Assembly: GCA_046536775.1 (NCBI GenBank)
Contig: JAWDMD010000004.1
Span: 1-26,058, forward strand
Length of the DNA: 26,058 bases
Direction: 5' to 3'
Origin: Candidatus Nanopusillus sp.
GTDB taxonomy: Archaea; Nanobdellota; Nanobdellia; Nanobdellales; Nanobdellaceae
Part shown: positions 5,223-26,058 of the stretch, piece by piece
Numbering within the stretch: the first letter of the stretch is position 1
How the letters are laid out: every line of letters starts with the position of its first letter
The notes under the pieces: model-generated
Seen by the model: the letters and a program-made list of their open reading frames with translations, nothing else
Told to the model about the DNA's origin: nothing
Database searches by the model: none
Program-made: the position numbers and the translations under genes

Positions 5223-5819
5223 ATGACACCACAAGATAGTTATAAATTAACTGATAAACCTACAATAAGAAACCTTGAAAGTATATTGAAAATACTTGAT
5301 GATGTAAAGCCAGTATTAATAGGTGGAATGGCTGTAGCTGCATATGCAAATTATTATAATATAAATTATATTAGAGAAACTGGGGATATAGATTTTATAA
5401 TAAATGAAAATAAATATGTAGATACAAAAGGAATAATATATAGAGAATTACCAAATTTACCAATTAAAGAAAGACAAATATTTGGATATGATGGTATTGA
5501 AATTAAATATAAAGATAGTCCAAGTGTAAGTATATTATTTAAAGATAAAGAAATTCCATATAATGAAATAGAATTAAATCTAGGTAAAAAGAAAATAAAA
5601 TTATATGTTGCTAAAATGGAATATCTGTTAGTAGATAAAATATTTACTTATTTGAATAGAAAGGAAGAAAAAGACTTCAATGATATAGAAATATTATCTC
5701 GTTTAATGAAAGAATATGGTTATGATAAAGACCTATTTTACAATATATTTGATGACTATTCAAAAAAATATGGAAAATATTCTTCTAAAGCTAAAGATAT
5801 TATAGAAAATATATTGTAA
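5223..5819 (+). CDS. nucleotidyltransferase-fold protein, AbiEii/DUF1814-like (solo)
   Basis: 198 aa. LIGGMAVAAY...RETGDIDFII matches the GG-x-A...R-x-[ST]-x-DIDF NTase motif of AbiEii/MenT-type toxins. The downstream YLNRKEEKDFNDIEIL resembles their R-x(3-4)-KD-x-x-D-x-x-L motif. It is shorter than typical family members, and the call rests on motif recognition only. Confidence 0.45.
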   Translation: MTPQDSYKLTDKPTIRNLESILKILDDVKPVLIGGMAVAAYANYYNINYIRETGDIDFIINENKYVDTKGIIYRELPNLPIKERQIFGYDGIEIKYKDSPSVSILFKDKEIPYNEIELNLGKKKIKLYVAKMEYLLVDKIFTYLNRKEEKDFNDIEILSRLMKEYGYDKDLFYNIFDDYSKKYGKYSSKAKDIIENIL

Positions 5820-5995: not shown

Positions 5996-6832
5996 ATGGA
6001 TGAAATTATTGAAGAATATAAAGTATGGTTAGAAATTCAAGGAAAATCCAAGAATACAATAAAAACATATTCTAGTACAGTAAAGAAATTTTTAGAATTT
6101 CTAATAAATAATGGAATAATTATTACAGATACAAAATCTATTAATAGTTCATTAGATAAGAATCTGATTCTAAAATTTTTGGCTGAATTAAAGGTTAAGA
6201 AAAAATTAGATTCAAATTCATTAAGATTATATGTTAGATCCATATCTTCATTTCTAAAATTTTTAGATAATGAAAATTTAGCAAAGCAAATAAAAGCTCC
6301 AAAAGTAGATAAAAGATTGCCAAAATTTATTACATATGATGAATTAAACAAGTTGTTAGAAAACGCTGAAAATTATAGAGATAAACTAATTATTAAATTC
6401 TTATTTTATACCGGAGTAAGAGTCTCTGAATTAACGAAAATAAAAAAGAATGATATAATTTTTGAAGAAGGTTTTGTAAAAGTATATGGAAAAGGTGGAA
6501 AAGAAAGAATAGTACCTGTACCAAAGGATTTGTTAAATGAATTAAAGGATTACGTAAATAAAATAAATACCGAAAATGTATTTCCACTATCATCAAGACA
6601 GGCAGAAAGAATTATAAAGAATATTGCAAAAAAAGCGGGAATAAGTAAAAAAGTAACTCCACATGTACTGAGGCATTCTCTTGCAACAACATTATTATCA
6701 AGAGGTGTTGATATAAGATATATACAAGAAATACTTGGACATAGTTCGTTAAATATTACACAAATATATACACATGTTGTTCCAAATCAACTAAAAGAAA
6801 TATATAATAGAGTTTTTGAAAGCCTAGCTTAA
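5996..6832 (+). CDS. xerA: tyrosine recombinase, XerA/XerC/XerD family
   Basis: 278 aa with an N-terminal SAM-like core-binding domain. The catalytic signature is present: YTGVRVSEL (Arg), GKGGKERIVP (Lys), HVLRHSLAT (His-x-x-Arg), LGHSSLNITQIYTHV (His, Tyr nucleophile). Confidence 0.85.
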   Translation: MDEIIEEYKVWLEIQGKSKNTIKTYSSTVKKFLEFLINNGIIITDTKSINSSLDKNLILKFLAELKVKKKLDSNSLRLYVRSISSFLKFLDNENLAKQIKAPKVDKRLPKFITYDELNKLLENAENYRDKLIIKFLFYTGVRVSELTKIKKNDIIFEEGFVKVYGKGGKERIVPVPKDLLNELKDYVNKINTENVFPLSSRQAERIIKNIAKKAGISKKVTPHVLRHSLATTLLSRGVDIRYIQEILGHSSLNITQIYTHVVPNQLKEIYNRVFESLA

Positions 6833-7717
6833 AATCGTTTTTATTTCGAAGTAATATATTACAATTACTACTATTGTTATTATAATTGATATTATAAATT
6901 CTGCAGATAATAATGGCAAGCTTTGAGATAATAATGAATTTATATTGATTGTTCTAAATATATATGGAAATAACACTGTTGCTAATATAATTGCATTTAA
7001 ATAATGAGAAATAATGAATAATGTTCTTTGTACAATATCTTTTAAATTCATAGATGTTAATATTAATAATATTATTAACGGAACAAAGAATAGATAATGT
7101 ATTGTATTTGTATATAGATATATATCTAATAATACTAGCAAATATCCTATTAATCCATATATTTTAAACTTCTTTACATTAAATATATATCCAAGAATAC
7201 CTAAAACAAATAATATTGTTGATAACAATAATAATAATGTAAAATAATTAAATATAATAAAAAGTCCCCAAAAAATATTTCCATTTAAAATTTTAATACC
7301 ATAACCTGTAATCGCTGCAGATAATATAGAAACTAATAATATTGCCATTGTTAAAGTTCCAAATAAATATATTAATATATCTCTTTTACTATATTCCTTA
7401 TTTATGCTTTTTCCTTCAAAAAATCCTATTCCAATGTTTCTAAATATGAATAAGAATAGTATAATAAATATTAGTGGATAAAATGAATATGCAACAGGAA
7501 CTAATAATGATGGTAATAAAGCTTCATATTGTACTAAAAAGAACGCAATCGATGTACCGGTTATTTCCCACATTGATAAAAATAAATTTTCATATTTTTC
7601 ATATACATCTTTATTTATAAAGAAAGATAATGCCAAAGCTATTTCTATTCCTATCAATAATAAAATTGTTGCTGCAATTAAAAATATATATGTATAAAAG
7701 TAAAATGAATAGTTCAT
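6824..7717 (-). CDS. cydB: cytochrome bd-type oxidase subunit II (divergent)
   Basis: 297-aa polytopic membrane protein. Its start overlaps the cydA stop by 4 nt (ATGA). It has a W-E-x-x-G-T segment near the position of the CydB N-E-x-W motif. The call rests mainly on position and topology. Confidence 0.6.
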   Translation of the reverse strand: MNYSFYFYTYIFLIAATILLLIGIEIALALSFFINKDVYEKYENLFLSMWEITGTSIAFFLVQYEALLPSLLVPVAYSFYPLIFIILFLFIFRNIGIGFFEGKSINKEYSKRDILIYLFGTLTMAILLVSILSAAITGYGIKILNGNIFWGLFIIFNYFTLLLLLSTILFVLGILGYIFNVKKFKIYGLIGYLLVLLDIYLYTNTIHYLFFVPLIILLILTSMNLKDIVQRTLFIISHYLNAIILATVLFPYIFRTININSLLSQSLPLLSAEFIISIIITIVVIVIYYFEIKTILS

Positions 7718-9078
7718 CCTAATTTATTAACAAAATATCTTTTTATAGCCCATATAGATAAAACAAATAATGTTATATATATTAATTCAAAGGTTATTGC
7801 AATGGAAATAACTCCAGGATTTAAATTTGCAGCATCCTTTGTTAATAATATTCCATATATTGTCCAAGGTTGTCTACCAACTTCTGCAGCAATCCATCCA
7901 GTTTCTAAAGAAATCAAAGATAATACTGATAATAATATTAATCCATATAATAATAATTTATTCATATAAAATGTATATTTTGGATTTAAAGTAAATTTTT
8001 TATCTTTTTTATCTTCTTTTGAAATTATTAAAGAAATTAATCCATACAATGATATAAAGAATATTAAGAATCCAAATGTTGCCATTATATCGAAAGAATT
8101 ATGCGCTATAGTAATATCTTTTGGTGAAGGTATATATGACTCATTTGTATATATCCCAGGAACAACTGTATTTGGATTAGCACTTTCATATAATAATAAA
8201 CTTTGCAAATTTGGAATTTGTATTGAATCAATTAATGTATAATTGTTTGTAACAATTCCAAATAAATTTTCAGGTGCATTAGAAATGTTTCCATTTAAAT
8301 TAGCCTCTAATGTTGCATACTTAATTGGTTGATATTTTGCTAATATATCTGCTGAATTTATTCCAAATATTCCTAAGAAAAATATTGATAAAAATAATAT
8401 AGGAATTGTTAATTTCAAGGCTTTCCCATATATTTTTATATTTTTAATATCCTTTTCTTTCAATATTTTATAAGAAATAATCAATACAAACAGTGATAAA
8501 CCAAATTCTAATGATGATAAAACTCCATGAGATACTTCAATAAATTGTATTGGAGTAAAGAATATAGAATATGGATTTGTATCAATATACTGACCATCCA
8601 AATATTCAATTCCTACAGGATAATTCATAAAAGAATTTAATGTTATTATTAAAAGACCAGATGTTGCTGCAAATATTCCAATTAAATACATAAATATAGG
8701 ATGTAATACTGAATTATTATATTTTTTAAATGAATAGAAATATATACCTACAAATAAAGATTCCATAAAGAATGCTAAAACCTCTATATATAATGATATA
8801 ATTGCTGTATTACTCACTATTTGCATAAATTTTGGGAATAATATATACATTTCAACAGCGACAATTGTACCTGATAATGTTCCAATTGCAAATAAAACTA
8901 ATATTAATGTTGATATTCTTTGAGCTAAAATTTTTATACTTTCATCCTTCTTTAATATTCCATATAATTCTAATGTTCCAATTGAAAAGGGCATTCCAAT
9001 GGTAATTGATGCTATTATAATATGTATAACAAGAGAAGATGCAAAAACAATCCTATCAATATCATATACAGGTAACAT
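7714..9078 (-). CDS. cydA: cytochrome bd-type quinol oxidase subunit I
   Basis: 454 aa. [23 protein letters not shown] aligns by eye with E. coli CydA [37 protein letters not shown] aligns with [31 protein letters not shown] aligns with GWFVAEYGRQPWAIG. Confidence 0.88.
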   Translation of the reverse strand: [454 protein letters not shown]

Positions 9079-15641: not shown

Positions 15642-17440
15642 AACTTGTAATTCAACTTAAGCCTAGGCCAAATTCCAAGAGAGATTAATTCATTTAATAA
15701 TAAATAGAAAGCATAAGAAATCTTAACTTTTGATATTTTTTCAGTTTCACCACAAACAGGACAATAAACTCTATTTCTTATATTATCTTCAACAGCAAGA
15801 GAACCACATTTTTCACAAACATAAACTGTTGTATCATCAGAAGAATACATTTCTCTTAATAACATAGGTGCACCATAAGCAGCAAGAACCTCATGTTCCA
15901 TTTCACTAAATTTCAAACCACCTTTCTTTGATTTACCTTCTGTAGGTTGTCTTGTTAATAATGTAACAGGACCTGTTGCTCTCGCCTGTAATTTATTCTT
16001 TGCCATATGTTTTAATCTTAAATAATATACACTTCCAATAAATATTTTAACTTTAAATTCATCTCCAGTTAAAGGATTATATAATGTTTCTGTTCCATCT
16101 TCTCTAAATCCTAAAGATAATAATTCTTTCCTTAATTCTTCTTCACTTTCTCCATACCAAGGAGTTCCATCAATATATCTCCCATTCAAACTTCCAATCT
16201 TTCCAGAAAGTAATTCTAATAATAAACCAACAGTTTCTCTTGAAGGAATTCCAGCAGGAGAGAATATTATATCTGGAACAAGACCTGAAGACGACCATGG
16301 CATATCTGATGGATCAACAAGCATTCCCAAAACACCTTTCTGTCCATGTCTTACAGAAAATTTATCTCCAAGTTCTGGGATCCTTAAATCTCTTAATTTT
16401 ATCCTAACTAATAAATTTCCATCATCAGATTCTGTTAATATAACCCTATCTACCCATCCTTCCTCCCCACTACCAGTAGTTAATGAAGAATCTTTCTTTC
16501 TTAAACCTGTTGTAATAGATTCAGAAGTTAAACCAATAAATCTTGGAGGTGATATTCTACCAACAAGAACCTCTTCAGGTTTTACAAATGATTCAACAGA
16601 AACAATTCCATCTTCTTCTAAACCTTTATATTTATCCTTTCCTCTATATAATTCTACAGAAGGATCTGGAATTGTAATTTCATCTTGTAATCCTCCAGAA
16701 TATCTTAGTCTATCTATTTCATAAGATCTGAAATATACAGATCTAAATAAACCCCTATCTACCGAACCTTTATTCATGATAATTGCATCTTCAATATTAT
16801 ATCCTTCCTGTGTCATTACAGCAACAATTACATTTTCTCCTATCGCATAATCGTCTTTAAATATATCAAAAGAAAATGTTCTAGTAATTGGATATTGCGG
16901 ATAGTATAAAATGGATATATCAGTATCAAATCTATTATGGAAGTTTAATGAATATATAGCATGAGACTGCCTTTGTGGCCTAACACCTCTATTTAATCTT
17001 GCAGATTGATTTCTATTTGAAAATGGAACTAGAGATGTAGCTATACCAAATATTACCAAAGAAGATAATTCTAAATGAGTTGTATTTTCTTTTATATCTT
17101 CTGGATATAATGCAACACTCAAATTTTCTTCTTCAGCAGGATCAACCCATTCAATTATACCTTCTTTTTCCAAATCAGACCATTTTATCTCTCCTCTCTT
17201 TAATTTTTCAATATGTTCTTTTGTTAATAATGGTTTACCATCTTTTACAACAATCAAAGGTCTTAAAATCCTTCCTTTTCTTGTTAATATTTCTATAACA
17301 TTTTTCGTTTCATCAAAATATATATTTACAAAATATGGAATAATACCTTTTCTTCTCTTTTCCTTAAATTCTTCAATAAATTTATTAGCATCATCAACAT
17401 ATCCAACAAAAACACTATCTATATAAACCTCATATGCCAT
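15638..17440 (-). CDS. rpoB1: DNA-directed RNA polymerase subunit B' (C-terminal part of split RpoB)
   Basis: 600 aa. Contains GDKFSVRHGQKGV, GLKFSEMEHEVLAAYGA and the C-terminal Zn ribbon CEKCGS...CPVCG. Confidence 0.95.
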   Translation of the reverse strand: MAYEVYIDSVFVGYVDDANKFIEEFKEKRRKGIIPYFVNIYFDETKNVIEILTRKGRILRPLIVVKDGKPLLTKEHIEKLKRGEIKWSDLEKEGIIEWVDPAEEENLSVALYPEDIKENTTHLELSSLVIFGIATSLVPFSNRNQSARLNRGVRPQRQSHAIYSLNFHNRFDTDISILYYPQYPITRTFSFDIFKDDYAIGENVIVAVMTQEGYNIEDAIIMNKGSVDRGLFRSVYFRSYEIDRLRYSGGLQDEITIPDPSVELYRGKDKYKGLEEDGIVSVESFVKPEEVLVGRISPPRFIGLTSESITTGLRKKDSSLTTGSGEEGWVDRVILTESDDGNLLVRIKLRDLRIPELGDKFSVRHGQKGVLGMLVDPSDMPWSSSGLVPDIIFSPAGIPSRETVGLLLELLSGKIGSLNGRYIDGTPWYGESEEELRKELLSLGFREDGTETLYNPLTGDEFKVKIFIGSVYYLRLKHMAKNKLQARATGPVTLLTRQPTEGKSKKGGLKFSEMEHEVLAAYGAPMLLREMYSSDDTTVYVCEKCGSLAVEDNIRNRVYCPVCGETEKISKVKISYAFYLLLNELISLGIWPRLKLNYKF

Positions 17441-20596: not shown

Positions 20597-20633
20597 AAAA
20601 TATTTATAAAGAATAAAGTATTTATCCTTAATT

Positions 20634-21395
20634 ATGAAAAGAAGAGGTATAGATATGGCTGTACAGTTAATATTTGTAATAATAATAATGTTAGTAGTAG
20701 CAGTTATTGTAATCAAGTTATTCCAGCAACAATCATCAAAGATTAGCGAAATATCAAATACACAAATACAACAAGCAGTTTCTGATTGCTCAAGCTATTG
20801 TACAGATCTATCTACATTTTGTACAAAGTACGAAAATATAGGAAATGGACTTGTACAAACAAGTCCTGGATATTATGTCTGTTTAAATGCTGTTCCATGC
20901 AGTATAGTATTACAATTATATGGTGGCTCTTCTAGTCAATGTCAAAATCAAGGATTTTCCATATCACCTCTTGATTGCATGTATTTAGAATGTCAAAATT
21001 ATATTGACAATTTATATTATAGTCCATTACAAGCAACAAGTTATATATTTGGAAATTATTCTTCTACTACATATTTTAATGTAACATCTGGACAAGAAAA
21101 TATCCAAATTTCAGCTCCATCCTCAATATTAAATCCAGGTCCATCACAATGTTCTGCACAATTACCAACATGGATTACAAACCAAGTATTTGGTGCATTA
21201 TTAGATATAGCTAACTACTATAATACTGCAGATGGATGTAACTTGAATTTAACAGTTAGTAATGGAATATTAATGGTGACTGGAAATTGTACATCATTAG
21301 GTATAAATAATAATGTTAATGGAATGCCATTGTGCCAATTCTTAATGCAAGTACCATATTCTCAGTTAAATAATATACCAAGCGTAACAAGCTAA
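20634..21395 (+). CDS. cysteine-rich secreted / pilin-like protein (12 Cys)
   Basis: 253 aa. The N-terminus MKRRGIDMAVQLIFVIIIMLVVAVIVIKLF is a basic stretch, then Gly, then a 22-residue hydrophobic helix (class III signal-peptide look). There are 12 Cys and several N-x-S/T sequons. The box TATTTATAAA lies about 28 nt upstream. Confidence 0.5.
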   Translation: MKRRGIDMAVQLIFVIIIMLVVAVIVIKLFQQQSSKISEISNTQIQQAVSDCSSYCTDLSTFCTKYENIGNGLVQTSPGYYVCLNAVPCSIVLQLYGGSSSQCQNQGFSISPLDCMYLECQNYIDNLYYSPLQATSYIFGNYSSTTYFNVTSGQENIQISAPSSILNPGPSQCSAQLPTWITNQVFGALLDIANYYNTADGCNLNLTVSNGILMVTGNCTSLGINNNVNGMPLCQFLMQVPYSQLNNIPSVTS

Positions 21396-21400
21396 ATGTA

Positions 21401-23371
21401 ATGAGTTTTTTTGAGTATTTTTATAACAACTTTAATTTAATAAAATTAAAAGCTCCTAGTTCTATATATAAAAAGTATGCTTTTCATTTATGGTTAAATA
21501 GATTAAATACAAATCCAGATAATATATTTTCTTCTGTAATAAATCTAGCATTATTTTCCATAATTATATATTTTATTTTAAGTTTTGTCAGTTTTCAATT
21601 AGCTTTTTCTTTATTAATATCTTTATTAATATTATCTTTCTATTTTGCATATTATCCAATATTTTATACACAAATTGTTAGAATTCAAGTAACATCCGAA
21701 ATTATATGGATAATACTATATTTATCACTATATCTAAAAAGAAATCCTAATTTAGAAAACGGAATAAAATATGTAGCTTATTATATGAAAGGTTATATTG
21801 CAACAGACTTTAAATCATTATTATATAATTTAGAAACAAATAAATTTAATGATATAGAATCTGCATTGGAATATTATCAGAGAAGATGGTTTTATCTAAG
21901 TCCAGATTTTGTATATGCAATGACACATATTGTAAATATTAAATATAAAACATCTATTGATGATATAAATAAATTATTAGATAGAATATTGGGGTGGGTA
22001 TTGAAAAAATCCTTAGAAAAATCCCAATTATATGTAGATGCTTTAAAAGAACCAGCAACAGTTATCGTATCTTTCTTAGTAATGTTACCAATAGTTAGTT
22101 TAATGATGTTACCAATAGTATCTTTATTCTTATTAAATACCGTAAGTTTCTATTTTATAGCATTTTCATATATAATAATTTTACCAGTTGTTACATTTCT
22201 AATAATTCAAAACTTTCTATCAAAAAATCCATTTGCATTCTCTGTTCCAGATTTATCCTTAGCAAGAGATCTACCAAAACCTGGAAAATTTAAAGTAGGA
22301 AATAAGGAAGTTCCAGCAATAATAATCTCAATAATATTGGGATCAATTGCATTTTTAGGAATATATCATTTAATTTCCTTAGCTATAAAAATTGCACTTA
22401 TTCCACAGGGATTTTTGAGTGATTATTTAAATATAGTTTATCAAGATAGAGCATTAATATATTCTGTTTTAACTCTAACATTACCTTTAGGATTGGGTTT
22501 GGGTATAGGATCTTATTACTATTTAACATCTTTCCAAAAAGTTAAAAAAATATATCAAATTGAAGAAATAGAAAATGAGTTTCCAATTGTTGTATATGAG
22601 TTTGCATCATTATTAGAAGATGGTTATCCATTTGAAATAGTAATTGAAAAAACATATTATAATTATAAAATAATAAAATCCTCTGGGGTTATGGAAAATT
22701 TTCTGAAAACAACACTATATAACTTGAGAAGAGGTTATGATTTAAATTTTTCTGTATTTGATCCAAAAATTGGCTCTTTAAATCTATATCCATCAAAATT
22801 AGTGAGAGAATCAATGCAACTCTTAGTTACTTCTTCTTCAAAAGGTCCTGATGTTTTATCAAAGATTTCATATAATATATCAACAAATTTAGAAAATGTA
22901 GATAATATAAGATATAATGTAAGGAAGATATTAAATGAAATAATTGGATTAATAGATATGACATCAAGAAATTTAGTACCATTAATTTCTGCAATGGTTA
23001 CAATTTTTAATAACGGTATAGTTTCAATGCTTTTTGCACTTGCATATTTCTTTCAATTAATAGACCAATCTTTTGGTTTAGGTGGTGGATCAAATCTATA
23101 TAATTTTATTGTAAATACCTTTAATCTATATAACCTAATACCACCAACATTTTTTGAAGCAATAATTGGTATATTTTTTATAGAATATGTGGTAATAACT
23201 TCATATATGAGTGCTGGAATAAAATATGGTTTTGATAGTACAATGACATCATATTATATAGGTAGAAATTTGTTGTTTGGAACGATATTTTATGTAATAT
23301 TTTCAATAATAGGAATATTAGTTATATATACAGTATTTGGCCCATACTTACCGACAAGTATACAATTATGA
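21401..23371 (+). CDS. polytopic membrane protein, FlaJ/TadC/PilC-like type IV filament platform (putative)
   Basis: 656 aa with many TM segments and two repeated soluble helical blocks (about residues 93-225 and 385-525). Their pattern, e.g. IENEFPIVVYEFASLLEDGYPFEIVIEKTY...LRRGYDLNFSV...LVRESMQLLVTSSSKGPDVLSKIS, resembles the duplicated T2SS-F domain. Pilin-like genes flank it. Confidence 0.55.
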   Translation: MSFFEYFYNNFNLIKLKAPSSIYKKYAFHLWLNRLNTNPDNIFSSVINLALFSIIIYFILSFVSFQLAFSLLISLLILSFYFAYYPIFYTQIVRIQVTSEIIWIILYLSLYLKRNPNLENGIKYVAYYMKGYIATDFKSLLYNLETNKFNDIESALEYYQRRWFYLSPDFVYAMTHIVNIKYKTSIDDINKLLDRILGWVLKKSLEKSQLYVDALKEPATVIVSFLVMLPIVSLMMLPIVSLFLLNTVSFYFIAFSYIIILPVVTFLIIQNFLSKNPFAFSVPDLSLARDLPKPGKFKVGNKEVPAIIISIILGSIAFLGIYHLISLAIKIALIPQGFLSDYLNIVYQDRALIYSVLTLTLPLGLGLGIGSYYYLTSFQKVKKIYQIEEIENEFPIVVYEFASLLEDGYPFEIVIEKTYYNYKIIKSSGVMENFLKTTLYNLRRGYDLNFSVFDPKIGSLNLYPSKLVRESMQLLVTSSSKGPDVLSKISYNISTNLENVDNIRYNVRKILNEIIGLIDMTSRNLVPLISAMVTIFNNGIVSMLFALAYFFQLIDQSFGLGGGSNLYNFIVNTFNLYNLIPPTFFEAIIGIFFIEYVVITSYMSAGIKYGFDSTMTSYYIGRNLLFGTIFYVIFSIIGILVIYTVFGPYLPTSIQL

Positions 23372-23652
23372 GATTACAACAAACAATATATTGGATTATA
23401 ATAACCTTTATATTAATTATAGTTGCTGGCTTATTCTCTTTTTATTATATTTATAATGTAAAAAATAATTTAAGTGGAAATAGTATACAAACCATTAATT
23501 GTCAACAACTTGGAAATTTATATAATAGAAGTTTTCAGGAAATAATCAATATTAAAGTATTTCTTAATGAAAATTGTACAATAAATGGAATAACGATACC
23601 TGCAGGCTATAGAATTATATATATTTATAACGGAAGTATTAATTATATATGA
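23368..23652 (+). CDS. small N-terminally anchored pilin-like protein (2 Cys)
   Basis: 94 aa: MRLQQTIYWIIITFILIIVAGLFSFYYIY..., then ...INCQQLGNLY...NENCT. The start overlaps the platform gene stop (ATGA). Confidence 0.45.
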   Translation: MRLQQTIYWIIITFILIIVAGLFSFYYIYNVKNNLSGNSIQTINCQQLGNLYNRSFQEIINIKVFLNENCTINGITIPAGYRIIYIYNGSINYI

Positions 23653-24128
23653 AGAACGACATAGCAATAGATACTGTATTTATAATAATAATAGCAATAA
23701 TATCTGTCGTAGTTGTATTAGATATTATTTTTACAAAATTCTTTGGCAATTCTCAAGTATATTATTGTCAAACATTAATATCACAAGGTGGTTTTTCTCC
23801 TTCATGTGAAAAATATTATCCTTCTGCAATAAATGTTATATATACAAATGAAAGTAATGATACTATTTATTCAGATACAACAGGATTAATATTAAATTGC
23901 TACAATAATAATGTAAACACAAATAGATTATTTAATGTATGTTATGATGTTTATATAAATGAGAATATTACTCTGAATTCATCAATATTACTTCAATATA
24001 TACAAAATTATACTGAATTTAATCCAAATAATATCATATTCAATTTGAATAATAGCAATGGAAATATATATCCATACAATAGTATATTTATAATATACAA
24101 CAATAGTTATATTTTAATATGGCAATAA
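23649..24128 (+). CDS. small N-terminally anchored pilin-like protein (4 Cys)
   Basis: 159 aa. MKNDIAIDTVFIIIIAIISVVVVLDIIF resembles the archaeal class III signal pattern K-G-Q-I-S-L-E-F-hydrophobic. This is followed by YYCQTLISQGGFSPSCEKYY. ATGA overlap with the upstream gene. Confidence 0.45.
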   Translation: MKNDIAIDTVFIIIIAIISVVVVLDIIFTKFFGNSQVYYCQTLISQGGFSPSCEKYYPSAINVIYTNESNDTIYSDTTGLILNCYNNNVNTNRLFNVCYDVYINENITLNSSILLQYIQNYTEFNPNNIIFNLNNSNGNIYPYNSIFIIYNNSYILIWQ

Positions 24129-24532
24129 AGTCTCAAGAACTTCCAATTAATTATACCTTTTTAATAATTATTGGAATAGTTGTTACATTAGTAATTGTGG
24201 GCATAATATTTTTATTAAAAGGAAATATAACTTCTTATATTGATAATACAATACCCAAATATAATAATACGCAGACTGTAGTAGAAACAAATATAAGTTC
24301 AATACAAGATGTTGCGATGGATGTAGTATCATGTTATTATAAAAAAGCCCAGGGTCTTTGTTATTTAATTAACTATCAGGGAAATCCATTTACATGTCAG
24401 GATTTAATAAATAATGTAAGCAGTATAGATCCAAATGTAGTAATGCAGAATTGTAATTATAATATAAATACTGGAGATTATATACTAGTATATTCGGCAG
24501 TAAATTATGTTTATATTAGTATTCAAGGGTAA
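24119..24532 (+). CDS. small N-terminally anchored pilin-like protein (4 Cys)
   Basis: 137 aa: MAIKSQELPINYTFLIIIGIVVTLVIVGIIFLL, then SCYYKKAQGLCY...FTCQDL...QNCNY. 10-nt overlap with the upstream gene. Confidence 0.45.
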   Translation: MAIKSQELPINYTFLIIIGIVVTLVIVGIIFLLKGNITSYIDNTIPKYNNTQTVVETNISSIQDVAMDVVSCYYKKAQGLCYLINYQGNPFTCQDLINNVSSIDPNVVMQNCNYNINTGDYILVYSAVNYVYISIQG

Positions 24533-24534
24533 AA

Positions 24535-24975
24535 ATGGATAATTGGTTTTGGATAATTGTAACAATTATTGCTTTTGGTTTATCTTTATATTTATATTTT
24601 AAATTTGCGAGTATAAATAGTCAAACCCAATCATTATATCAAGATATATCTTCATGTCAAAATTTATATACAACAGTTGAAAAAGTATGCTATTCTAACA
24701 ATGGAACAGAATTCTATATTAACATTGAAATAAACAATTATTTAAATTATATTTATGGTAATAATAGTTTATTAAGTTGTTATATATATGACAAATATTA
24801 TAATTATACAATACCATGCAATGTAATAATAAATACAACAAATAATACGATTGAATATTATACTTCCGGATTATTTTACGAATTATCGCGTGGAAAATCA
24901 AATGAACAAATCCCACTACTTGTTGAAAAGACATCTCCAACACAAGTAACAATTTATATAGAAAATCCAAGTTAA
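24535..24975 (+). CDS. small N-terminally anchored pilin-like protein (4 Cys)
   Basis: 146 aa: MDNWFWIIVTIIAFGLSLYLYF, then ISSCQNLYTTVEKVCYS...LLSCYIY...IPCNVI. 2-nt gap from the upstream gene. Confidence 0.45.
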   Translation: MDNWFWIIVTIIAFGLSLYLYFKFASINSQTQSLYQDISSCQNLYTTVEKVCYSNNGTEFYINIEINNYLNYIYGNNSLLSCYIYDKYYNYTIPCNVIINTTNNTIEYYTSGLFYELSRGKSNEQIPLLVEKTSPTQVTIYIENPS

Positions 24976-25011
24976 AAAACTTTAAAACTTTTTTAATATT
25001 ATTAATCCATA

Positions 25012-26058
25012 ATGAAAAGAGATCAATTAAATTTACTTTCAATAGTAATAATATTAGTAGTTATATCATTATCTTTCCTAATATATTATCAATATTCTTC
25101 TAATGTTAAAAGGGAACAAGAAAAATATATATTTGAAAATTTTATTAACAGTTTACAGAATTTAGAGAATACAATAAATAGTATTCAAGGCACTTATTAT
25201 GTAAAAGTTGATATACCAAGTGGAGTTATATTATATACAAATAGTACAGAATTAATAATACAATATAATAACAATAATTATACAATTAATTTTTACAAGA
25301 ATGTAACATTGTATAATAATAATCAAAACGTGAGTTTTTTATATCCAAACAATTATATATATCTTGTTAGTACAAATAATACTATTTTTATTACAACAAA
25401 TTTTCAGAATTCAATTACTGTATTTAATCAATATTTACCTAATGGATCTCTTATAATTATAAATCCCGAAAATAATCAAAACAATAACAACAATGGAGGA
25501 AATAATAATATTAACTCAAATTCTCAATGTTTAGTTAACTATACTGGACAAACAAGCTTTTTCTGGGGTGATGTAAATGGTAATAATTATTTACCTCCAA
25601 TAGGAGACCAGGGAAATTGCGGAGATTGTTGGGCTTTTGCTAGCGCAAACGGAATTGCTTCAGTATATATGATAAGAAATAATGAATCTAATTATGGATT
25701 ACAATTATCCCCAGCATATTTAGCGATAGAATGCAATAAGGGTTATCAAAATAATCAACCAGAGTGTAGCTCTGAAGAAGGATGCAATGGTGGTTGGCCA
25801 TATTATGGTATAGTATTTACATCTCAAAATGGCATACCGCCAGATCCTGGATGGAGCAATTATGATTCTACTTTATATGGATGCCCAGGAAATGGTTTTA
25901 GTTATCCGGGCGATGTGTGTAATTATAATTATAATGGACCCACTTCTCCATTATATTATCCAGAGGGTGTTATAGATCTTGAGGAAAATGGACCTTTATC
26001 AGATCAACAAATAATTCAAGATTTATTATGTTATGGACCTTTAGTAGCTGCTGGAATG
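25012..26058 (+). CDS. papain-family (C1) cysteine peptidase with N-terminal pilin-like anchor domain (3' end beyond window)
   Basis: Not in the ORF track because it runs off the window. My own translation from the ATG at 25012 is open for 349 codons. It has four parts: an anchor (MKRDQLNLLSIVIILVVISLSFLIYY); a beta-rich region of about 130 aa; an Asn-rich linker (NPENNQNNNNNGGNNNINSNS); and a C1 domain. The C1 domain reads FFWGDVNGNNYLPPIGDQGNCGDCWAFASANGIAS (catalytic Cys codon 25627-25629), GCNGGW and GPLVAAG. Confidence 0.8.
   Translation, partial: MKRDQLNLLSIVIILVVISLSFLIYYQYSSNVKREQEKYIFENFINSLQNLENTINSIQGTYYVKVDIPSGVILYTNSTELIIQYNNNNYTINFYKNVTLYNNNQNVSFLYPNNYIYLVSTNNTIFITTNFQNSITVFNQYLPNGSLIIINPENNQNNNNNGGNNNINSNSQCLVNYTGQTSFFWGDVNGNNYLPPIGDQGNCGDCWAFASANGIASVYMIRNNESNYGLQLSPAYLAIECNKGYQNNQPECSSEEGCNGGWPYYGIVFTSQNGIPPDPGWSNYDSTLYGCPGNGFSYPGDVCNYNYNGPTSPLYYPEGVIDLEENGPLSDQQIIQDLLCYGPLVAAGM

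Follow-up and report, generated by a model that had tools for sequence, protein, structure and literature searches.

A divergent platform gene and its pilin-like neighbors in Candidatus Nanopusillus: a probable subunit arm of a type IV filament machine with its ATPase encoded elsewhere

Functional proteins carried on a class III-type N-terminal helix are known from the Sulfolobus bindosome assembly system (Bas) and from the modular pilins PilB and PilC of Streptococcus sanguinis. In Bas and in bacterial modular type IV pilins, such binding proteins or adhesins are handled by a pair made up of a platform protein and an ATPase; unlike the cluster considered here, both possess an adjacent ATPase along with the prepilin peptidase PibD or PilD. 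Also comparable are the type IV filament (TFF) loci of DPANN archaea, in which a TadC protein of about 700 residues is encoded next to its ATPase or within 6.4 kb of it and the pilins have [KR]G sites. Archaeal TadC/FlaJ platforms of arCOG01814 have been catalogued by Makarova, Koonin, and Albers (2016). The subject of this analysis is a cluster at positions 20634-26058 of the forward strand in a window of 26,058 nucleotides from Candidatus Nanopusillus sp., a minute parasitic archaeon of hot springs (contig JAWDMD010000004.1, assembly GCA_046536775.1), the window being the whole stretch of DNA that was analyzed. It consists of one platform gene and six genes for smaller products that begin with a hydrophobic helix, and the region is probably the platform and subunit arm of a TFF machine whose ATPase is encoded elsewhere. 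The platform family, the DPANN pilus loci, and the placement of the ortholog of this platform in arCOG01814 are already known. The seven same-strand open reading frames (ORFs), the last of which reaches the end of the window, are the following.

g1, 20634-21395, + strand: pilin-like protein, 253 residues
g2, 21401-23371, + strand: polytopic platform protein of the T2SSF (GspF/PilC/TadC/FlaJ) superfamily, 656 residues
g3, 23368-23652, + strand: pilin-like protein, 94 residues, 2 Cys, N-terminus MRLQQTIYWIIITF
g4, 23649-24128, + strand: pilin-like protein, 159 residues, 4 Cys, N-terminus MKNDIAIDTVFIIII
g5, 24119-24532, + strand: pilin-like protein, 137 residues, 4 Cys, N-terminus MAIKSQELPINYTFLIIIG
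g6, 24535-24975, + strand: single-helix Cys-containing module, 146 residues, N-terminus MDNWFWIIVTIIAFGL, without a basic leader
g7, 25012-26058, + strand: anchor plus C1 peptidase, ATG at 25012, at least 349 residues, cut by the window end

From g1 to g7 the junctions measure +5, −4 (ATGA), −4 (ATGA), −10, +2, and +36 nt, so that the packing described in the original prediction is reproduced in its coordinates and at all six junctions. The cluster genes are translationally coupled.

That g2 is a platform protein follows from transitive homology, from a duplication within the protein, from a local match to the EpsF fold, and from the placement of its ortholog in arCOG01814. A word-indexed homolog search with g2 returned eight close orthologs and one distant protein, P0009. 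This protein of 715 residues aligns with 96% of g2 at 26% identity (E 3e-54) and scores 31 bits for PF00482 (T2SSF), where the cutoff is 25.2. Among 1.84 billion cluster representatives, a profile search yielded 938 full-length relatives of 650-750 residues, counted at 50% identity clustering. The family spans several DPANN lineages; T2SSF is matched by 31 of the 58 members that were aligned, and the invariant residues of the family (P230, P238, E391, E412, G458, and P527) are all kept in the window protein. At its second soluble block, the family profile from a deep alignment reaches the cytoplasmic domain of Vibrio EpsF (2vma) at E 1e-3, a match for which the deeper profile was needed, since a sequence search of the PDB with a shallow g2 alignment found nothing. 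The N- and C-terminal halves of the family align with each other (hhalign E 2e-4, 147 columns), such that a membrane helix and a helical bundle are paired in each and NPNLE pairs with GYPFE. An AlphaFold model based on the 58-sequence alignment (predicted local distance difference test (pLDDT) 87.2, predicted template modeling score (pTM) 0.83) matches EpsF locally in Foldseek (2vmb_B; probability 0.99, template modeling score (TM) 0.69, root-mean-square deviation 3.5 over 127 columns), and also the PilC model of 3jc8 (probability 0.63). The original prediction had seen in this protein a duplicated platform domain of the FlaJ/TadC/PilC kind and had proposed profile hidden Markov model (HMM) and structure searches of it; both kinds of search now agree with that reading, by way of the family profile and the local EpsF match.

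The window protein shares 95% identity with a protein of Candidatus Nanobsidianus stetteri Nst1 and 94% with one of Candidatus Nanopusillus acidilobi, which assigns the window to a nanoarchaeon of the Nanopusillaceae; an exact look-up found no identical entry on record. The N. acidilobi ortholog, Nps_00520 (Nst1_638), is listed under arCOG01814 in supplementary file 2 of Wurch et al. (2016), where it has 9 membrane helices and the annotation "uncharacterized conserved membrane protein," and the same arCOG holds Nps_02245 of N. acidilobi, annotated as "T2SS protein F." Like the arCOG01814/T2SSF platforms, g2 is polytopic with 9-10 helices, a unit made up of a cytoplasmic helical bundle and then membrane helices occurs in it twice in tandem, and the full-length homologs of g2 pass the Pfam cutoff for T2SSF. 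It differs from those platforms in that g2 itself reaches no Pfam threshold, shares only 25-28% identity with the nearest relatives outside the Nanopusillaceae, and is encoded by a gene with no ATPase gene beside it. Its ratio of nonsynonymous to synonymous substitutions (dN/dS) is 0.08-0.15, the lowest in the cluster, compared with 0.13-0.17 for the ATP-grasp neighbor. The protein is a very divergent TadC/FlaJ/GspF-type platform under strong constraint.

That g2 might instead be an unrelated transporter, with chance membrane peptides as its small neighbors, is scarcely credible. Such a view could appeal to the lack of a direct Pfam match for g2 and to the top global Foldseek matches of the model, which are transporters and pyrophosphatases, but those matches have E above 0.08 and TM about 0.1, and we set them aside as uninformative. 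It would leave unexplained why full-length homologs carry T2SSF, why the family profile matches EpsF, why the EpsF fold is matched locally with a probability of 0.99, and why a T2SSE ATPase and an A24 peptidase are encoded near the platform in distant relatives.

Parts that are missing here are present in the loci of these relatives. In Nanohaloarchaeota, the gene for a 750-residue T2SSE ATPase ends 3-9 nt before the homologous platform gene; the distance is 0.4-1.1 kb in one Aenigmatarchaeota genome and in an unclassified archaeal metagenome-assembled genome (MAG), and 3.7-6.4 kb in Woesearchaeota and Pacearchaeota. In two relatives from the last-named lineages, the platform gene is followed by genes for a series of [KR][KR]G pilins, and the locus ends with an A24 peptidase gene. 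The DPANN ATPases are 44-47% identical across lineages. The window cluster descends from a TFF locus of this kind, with ATPase and pilins, that is found in several DPANN lineages. It shares with these loci the homologous platform followed by a run of single-helix proteins, as well as modular pilin-like proteins with cargo domains (a LamG lectin in the Aenigmatarchaeota locus). It differs from them in having no ATPase or peptidase gene in the locus, in leaders that have shrunk to M-[KR]-x-Q, and in added lineage-specific genes, which encode a protease of the C1 family, a Cys-rich protein resembling DUF333, and two polytopic proteins with His motifs.

The distant loci offer further details. Just upstream of the ATPase gene on the Aenigmatarchaeota chromosome (L026:5456-7096) is the gene of a 546-residue protein with a class III-like N-terminus, MRLKGISGLMVAIF, and two LamG/ConA-like lectin domains (E 5e-49), which looks like a modular adhesin-pilin. 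In a Nanohalobium MAG (L030:3940-9771), the ORF for the ATPase, which lies upstream of the platform gene, encodes 1943 residues. Several Nanohaloarchaeota ATPase homologs of about 1250 residues carry intein or Hint domains (PF14528, PF14890), making this DPANN ATPase family a frequent intein host.

Within the Nanopusillaceae, the same gene order is found in 13 loci, mostly with overlaps of 4-20 nt, including those of three complete genomes (N. acidilobi, CP010514; Nanobdella aerobiophila MJ1, AP019769; and strain YN1, AP031373). In relatives the cluster runs about 9 kb past the point that corresponds to the window end and comprises 12-13 genes. The suspicion that the cluster might continue was thus correct, and the gene order, which the original prediction had proposed to compare in related genomes, is conserved there together with its overlaps. 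The idea of a minimal module has to be given up, and the cluster is not self-contained either: the window holds the 5' half of a 12-13-gene cluster that descends from a DPANN type IV filament locus. Conserved order and overlaps in 13 loci, together with purifying selection on all genes (dN/dS 0.11-0.47 for those other than g2), indicate that the arrangement is not a matter of chance. The order is g1, g2 (the platform), g3, g4, g5, g6, and g7 (about 500 residues), followed by:

g8: protein of about 275 residues, weakly similar to DUF333, that has an N-terminal signal and is anchored at its C-terminus
g9: pilin-like protein, about 540 residues
g10: polytopic protein, about 400 residues
g11: pilin-like protein, about 411 residues, up to 24 Cys
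g12: pilin-like protein, 215 residues
g13: second polytopic protein, about 345 residues

The Cys-rich g8 (L007:15123-15947 and orthologs) has 14 Cys, and DUF333 is matched in 5 of 83 proteins with a best E of 1.3e-4; the gene is duplicated in YN1 (L016:14937-15788 and 16223-16741). The g10 and g13 proteins are paralogous (L016:18264-19466, L015:20674-21711), with 9-12 helices, no Cys, and shared conserved His-containing motifs (GIHHKIYK / AIHAYLYH, IHG), and they match no Pfam family. We considered them as hidden A24 peptidases and rejected the idea, as they lack both a conserved Asp pair and the GxGD motif and are matched by no HMM.

The six window products other than g2 are pilin-like in build. 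The N-termini of all six in the window consist of 2-7 polar residues and then one hydrophobic helix, and across 103 Nanopusillaceae cluster proteins the hydrophobic core is preceded by a median of 4 residues. The pilin-like proteins contain 3.1 Cys per 100 residues, compared with 0.36 in the other ORFs of the window, and the counts are even in the five complete proteins (12, 2, 4, 4, and 4); N-glycosylation sequons occur at 1.5 times the expected number, a modest enrichment. Both the Cys richness and the sequons fit extracytoplasmic domains. Proteins g1 and g3-g7 are extracytoplasmic Cys-rich proteins, each on a single N-terminal hydrophobic helix, and several are paralogs of one another. The paralogy of g4 and g5 extends past the membrane helix (hhalign probability 86%, E 5.6e-6, 102 columns), profile comparison also finds paralogy between the N-terminal modules of g7 and g9 and between g9 and g11, and the g3 and g6 profiles are weakly similar (hhalign probability 49%). 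Ten ortholog groups of pilin-like proteins are kept across the Nanopusillaceae; that of g3 was found in all nine genomes sampled. A homolog search with the six pilin-like proteins concatenated into one 979-residue query gave no scored match even though orthologs 88-90% identical are in the collection, a null result that probably stems from the candidate collection and not from biology; negatives of such searches are to be read with care for low-complexity proteins from AT-rich genomes.

Among these proteins, g1 is the best candidate for the major subunit. Its N-terminus, MKRRG|IDMAVQLIFVIIIMLVVAVIV, is the most canonical class III-like site in the cluster, and in 11 orthologs the N-terminus M[KR][KR]R[GSA] is conserved, the helix is highly conserved, and the 12 Cys are invariant. 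IMG labels some of these orthologs "major pilin PilA" or "pseudopilin PulG," although g1 matches no pilin family in Pfam or NCBIfam. The AlphaFold model of g1, the one pilin-like product that was modeled (pLDDT 78), starts with a helix spanning residues 3-37 and has a head of mixed alpha/beta structure, but it has no match in the PDB. A [KR][G/A/S] cleavage site is present only in g1 (KRRG, KKRA, KKRS) and, in some genomes, in g5, whose N-terminus (K-S/G and then Q-E-L/M-P) resembles MVNKKGQEMTLGT, the start of the pilin that comes first behind the platform in loci of Pacearchaeota and Woesearchaeota. The class III (prepilin-type) signal peptides attributed to all six products therefore stand as regards the polar start and hydrophobic helix; as regards a canonical site, they stand for g1, and for g5 in some genomes.

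The g7 product, whose papain-family domain was absent from the original description, adds an enzyme to this set of subunits. It is built of a pilin-like anchor, which extends from residue 1 to about residue 130, then an Asn-rich linker, and a cysteine peptidase domain of the papain family (C1). In the window fragment this domain matches Pfam Peptidase_C1 (PF00112) at residues 191-345 with E 7e-13 and a score of 49.6 bits, the cutoff being 20.7. Its catalytic Cys is part of the motif GNCGDCWAFAS, with a CGDCWAF core, and the His and Asn lie past the window end. Full-length orthologs of 436-528 residues match Peptidase_C1 down to E 7.6e-25, and in the N. acidilobi ortholog the Cys, His (GHAMLLVGY), and Asn (ENQWG) align to falcipain-3. 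With its above-cutoff Pfam match, its CGDCWAF motif, and the aligned His and Asn of the full-length ortholog, g7 resembles other papain-family (MEROPS C1) peptidases; it departs from them in having an N-terminal membrane helix and pilin-like module in place of a signal peptide and propeptide, in its extra Cys, and in the location of its gene within a TFF-type operon. Strain YN1 carries the peptidase domain (47% identity) on a g6-type anchor (57% identity) in a protein of 579 residues, and there the g7-type anchor (48% identity) stands alone as a 141-residue gene product. The protease domain thus moves between anchor modules in different genomes, and its position on the g7 anchor here and on the g6 anchor in YN1 marks the anchors as independent modules and the protease as cargo. 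By analogy, a protease riding on a pilin-like anchor fits the logic of Bas and of modular pilins; to our knowledge, no papain-type protease cargo has been described for Bas or for bacterial modular pilins. Separately, the MAG KM4331-08 has at L012:13201-14930 a g6-type gene of 256 residues followed by a 313-residue ORF that starts inside apparent peptidase C-terminal sequence, and no Peptidase_C1 match is recorded there; the protease gene of this genome may be disrupted or rearranged.

Conservation of this degree bears on whether the cluster still works. A decayed and non-functional remnant of a type IV pilus, left after genome reduction had removed the ATPase and the peptidase, would account for the absence of both in cis, for the degenerate cleavage motifs, and for the lack of recorded proteome detection. 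It is, however, hard to reconcile with intact ORFs and the same overlaps in 13 genomes at 54-95% identity, with dN/dS of 0.08-0.47, with the 12 invariant Cys of g1, and with the retained catalytic residues of the protease, and we regard it as very improbable.

Neither an ATPase nor an A24 peptidase was found in the window or in six-frame translations of 15 related loci extending up to 10 kb on each side, where matches to a DPANN ATPase HMM were considered at E up to 10 for the window and 14 related loci; the absence of both in cis, as first noted, is thus upheld. The complete set of four components (ATPase, platform, pilin, and class III peptidase) is not co-located, and the cluster holds only the platform and the pilin-like genes. 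According to the literature, ATPases are encoded elsewhere in N. acidilobi and Nst1. Five secretion ATPases are listed for Nst1 (Makarova et al. 2016), and the N. acidilobi gene table lists at least four, all outside the cluster (Wurch et al. 2016, supplement): Nps_00925 beside FlaH, Nps_01175 unpaired, Nps_02250 (arCOG01818; detected in the proteome) beside the other arCOG01814 platform, Nps_02245, and Nps_03260 beside a split TadC. In the same table the archaellum FlaJ, Nps_02340, lies far from FlaI, and the archaellum proteins of N. acidilobi are expressed despite this unlinking. With FlaJ unlinked from FlaI and ATPases elsewhere, the separation of platform and ATPase genes is a habit of the N. 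acidilobi genome. The label of an "orphan" operon accordingly holds in that no ATPase is encoded in cis, but the arrangement is less odd than it had seemed.

If the region is the platform and subunit arm of a TFF machine, a secretion ATPase encoded elsewhere would dock on the two cytoplasmic domains of g2, the candidate partners being orthologs of N. acidilobi Nps_02250, which is paired with the other arCOG01814 platform, or of the unpaired Nps_01175. The ATPase would then drive the helix-anchored subunits out of the membrane into a short pilus or pseudopilus, with g1 as the likeliest main subunit and the others as minor or tip subunits and cargo-bearing "modular pilins." One such modular subunit would show a papain-type protease at the cell surface, where it could plausibly grip or open the surface layer (S-layer) of the host. 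The ATPase partner, the polymerization, and the host-contact role in this scheme are what we infer.

A variant of this arrangement is that g2 serves as a second platform of the Nps_02245/Nps_02250 system and that the window supplies the missing pilins of that system. N. acidilobi has two arCOG01814 proteins, one of them beside a proteome-detected arCOG01818 ATPase that has no annotated adjacent pilins, and the census of Makarova et al. (2016) reported of one nanoarchaeal ATPase that no cognate pilins could be found for it. Archaeal TFF systems with two platform genes offer a parallel, and some DPANN loci have two platform proteins (2026 preprint). On the other hand, the unpaired ATPase Nps_01175 makes a one-to-one pairing equally possible, and both T2SSF repeats are present in g2, as in a complete platform and not half of one. 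We therefore consider a second-platform role possible but on the unlikely side.

Several observations weigh against the reading of the region as one arm of a filament machine. Searched against Pfam at E up to 1, g2 itself has DUF5743 (E 0.055) as its single match and none to T2SSF. For the g1 model, the PDB contains no match with E below 1 and no pilin match; apart from g1 and g5, the pilin-like N-termini are of the form M-[KR]-x-Q, in which the position preceding the Gln varies between N, S, E, G, R, Y, D, and L. The original prediction had proposed a FlaFind- or PilFind-type check of the N-termini, and its outcome is unfavorable: a FlaFind-like cleavage core, given by a hand-written pattern and not by FlaFind itself, occurs in 0 of 103 Nanopusillaceae N-termini compared with 22 of 64 in the distant DPANN loci. 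None of 83 cluster proteins matched archaeal pilin, class III signal, or archaellin models of Pfam and NCBIfam (among them Pilin_N, Class_IIIsignal, and Arch_flagellin) at E up to 0.05, the stray single matches being to GspG (0.014) and ComGD (0.026); the pilins of distant DPANN relatives are likewise mostly unrecognised by family models. No Nanopusillaceae ATPase is among the best 120 listed matches to a profile of seven DPANN ATPases, all of which come from other lineages, so that the pairing is unsupported from this side. Two nanoarchaea are named as exceptions without an A24 peptidase (Makarova et al. 2016), and the N. acidilobi table has no entry for arCOG02298, arCOG02300, or "peptidase A24," where the host table has one A24 entry (Wurch et al. 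2016). The proteome table, as shown, records no detection for the cluster entries Nps_00500-00525 (Wurch et al. 2016).

Part of this evidence would suit a cluster that serves for display only, in which uncleaved signal anchors hold type II membrane proteins and the TadC-like protein has been re-used as a membrane organizer or as a scaffold for inserting Cys-rich surface enzymes and adhesins, with no ATPase-driven polymerization. An A24 peptidase not reported in these genomes, canonical cleavage cores in none of the 103 N-termini, the lack of a pilin family or fold match, and the lack of an ATPase in cis are all what one would expect of it, and cargo domains of 410-550 residues with up to 24 Cys would be awkward as filament subunits. 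What speaks for a filament machine instead is that g2, under the strongest constraint in the cluster, keeps both T2SSF-like cytoplasmic domains, on which the ATPase docks in known systems, that g1 conserves its [KR][G/A/S] site and helix, and that the locus derives from loci with ATPase, pilins, and peptidase. On balance we consider display alone unlikely.

The arm of a filament machine might also be more unusual than we have assumed. A filament or pseudopilus could be built without any prepilin peptidase, with the protease on its swappable anchor cutting the host S-layer at the site of attachment and g10 and g13 as new machine parts. The near-leaderless N-termini, in which M-[KR]-x-Q directly precedes the helix, would then need no trimming. 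Taken as a whole, we regard this elaboration as distinctly doubtful.

Two noncoding stretches of the cluster may be relevant to its expression:

20600-20633, + strand: intergenic region 5' of g1, with a TTTATAAA box about 28 nt before the ATG
24976-25011, + strand: spacer between g6 and g7, 36 nt, with an A/T-rich TTTAAAA...TTTTTAATA stretch

Both were read from the sequence. The TTTATAAA box is a putative archaeal TATA element for a leaderless transcript, a motif that counts for little at about 25% G+C, and the A/T-rich stretch may be an internal promoter. A scan for bacterial-type promoters and terminators found no enrichment, and Rfam, tRNA, and tandem-repeat scans of the cluster region gave nothing relevant. 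Upstream of g1 are genes for a RimK-type ATP-grasp ligase and a DUF371 protein, neighbors that had been recognized at the outset and are both matched in Pfam (E 1.4e-22 and 3.5e-47).

The remainder of the window, which has about 25% G+C, also encodes a split RpoB, RpoH, FtsZ, and ribosomal proteins, and a tRNA-Lys (CTT) gene at 388-462 on the − strand is the sole Rfam or ARAGORN match in the window. A gene for cytochrome bd oxidase subunit I (7714-9078, − strand; Pfam E 5.5e-88) is followed by a 296-residue ORF without a Pfam match (6824-7717, − strand). A hypothetical ORF immediately downstream of cytochrome bd subunit I has been described for clade 1 Nanoarchaeota, and quinone synthesis genes were not found in terrestrial Nanoarchaeota (Jarett et al. 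2018). Among the ribosomal protein genes, an ORF resembling an AbiEii-type nucleotidyltransferase toxin (5223-5819, + strand; E 8.8e-6) adjoins a tyrosine recombinase of the phage integrase family (5996-6832, + strand; E 1.4e-41), and this could represent either a small element that has integrated or a recombinase of the Xer type.

In the literature that we found, the conserved 12-13-gene Nanopusillaceae cluster is not described, nor are near-leaderless subunits in genomes reported to have no A24 peptidase, nor a protease on a swappable pilin-like anchor. The cluster is described neither in an electron cryotomography paper on a DPANN co-culture nor in the YN4 preprint. Locus-based detectors in the style of MacSyFinder, of a kind described in the 2026 preprint, require all core parts together and will miss such systems in scrambled, reduced genomes.

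As regards how nanoarchaea recognize, hold, and tap their hosts, conserved uncharacterized membrane proteins have been pointed to as the place to search (Wurch et al. 2016). The present cluster bears on this question: it is kept in every one of the 13 Nanopusillaceae loci recovered, the three complete genomes included, it joins a secreted-type protease to a pilin-like anchor, and it supplies candidate subunits for a pilus system whose pilins the 2016 census could not find. If the reported absence of an A24 peptidase holds, these proteins would provide a direct test of whether a type IV filament can be assembled from untrimmed subunits.

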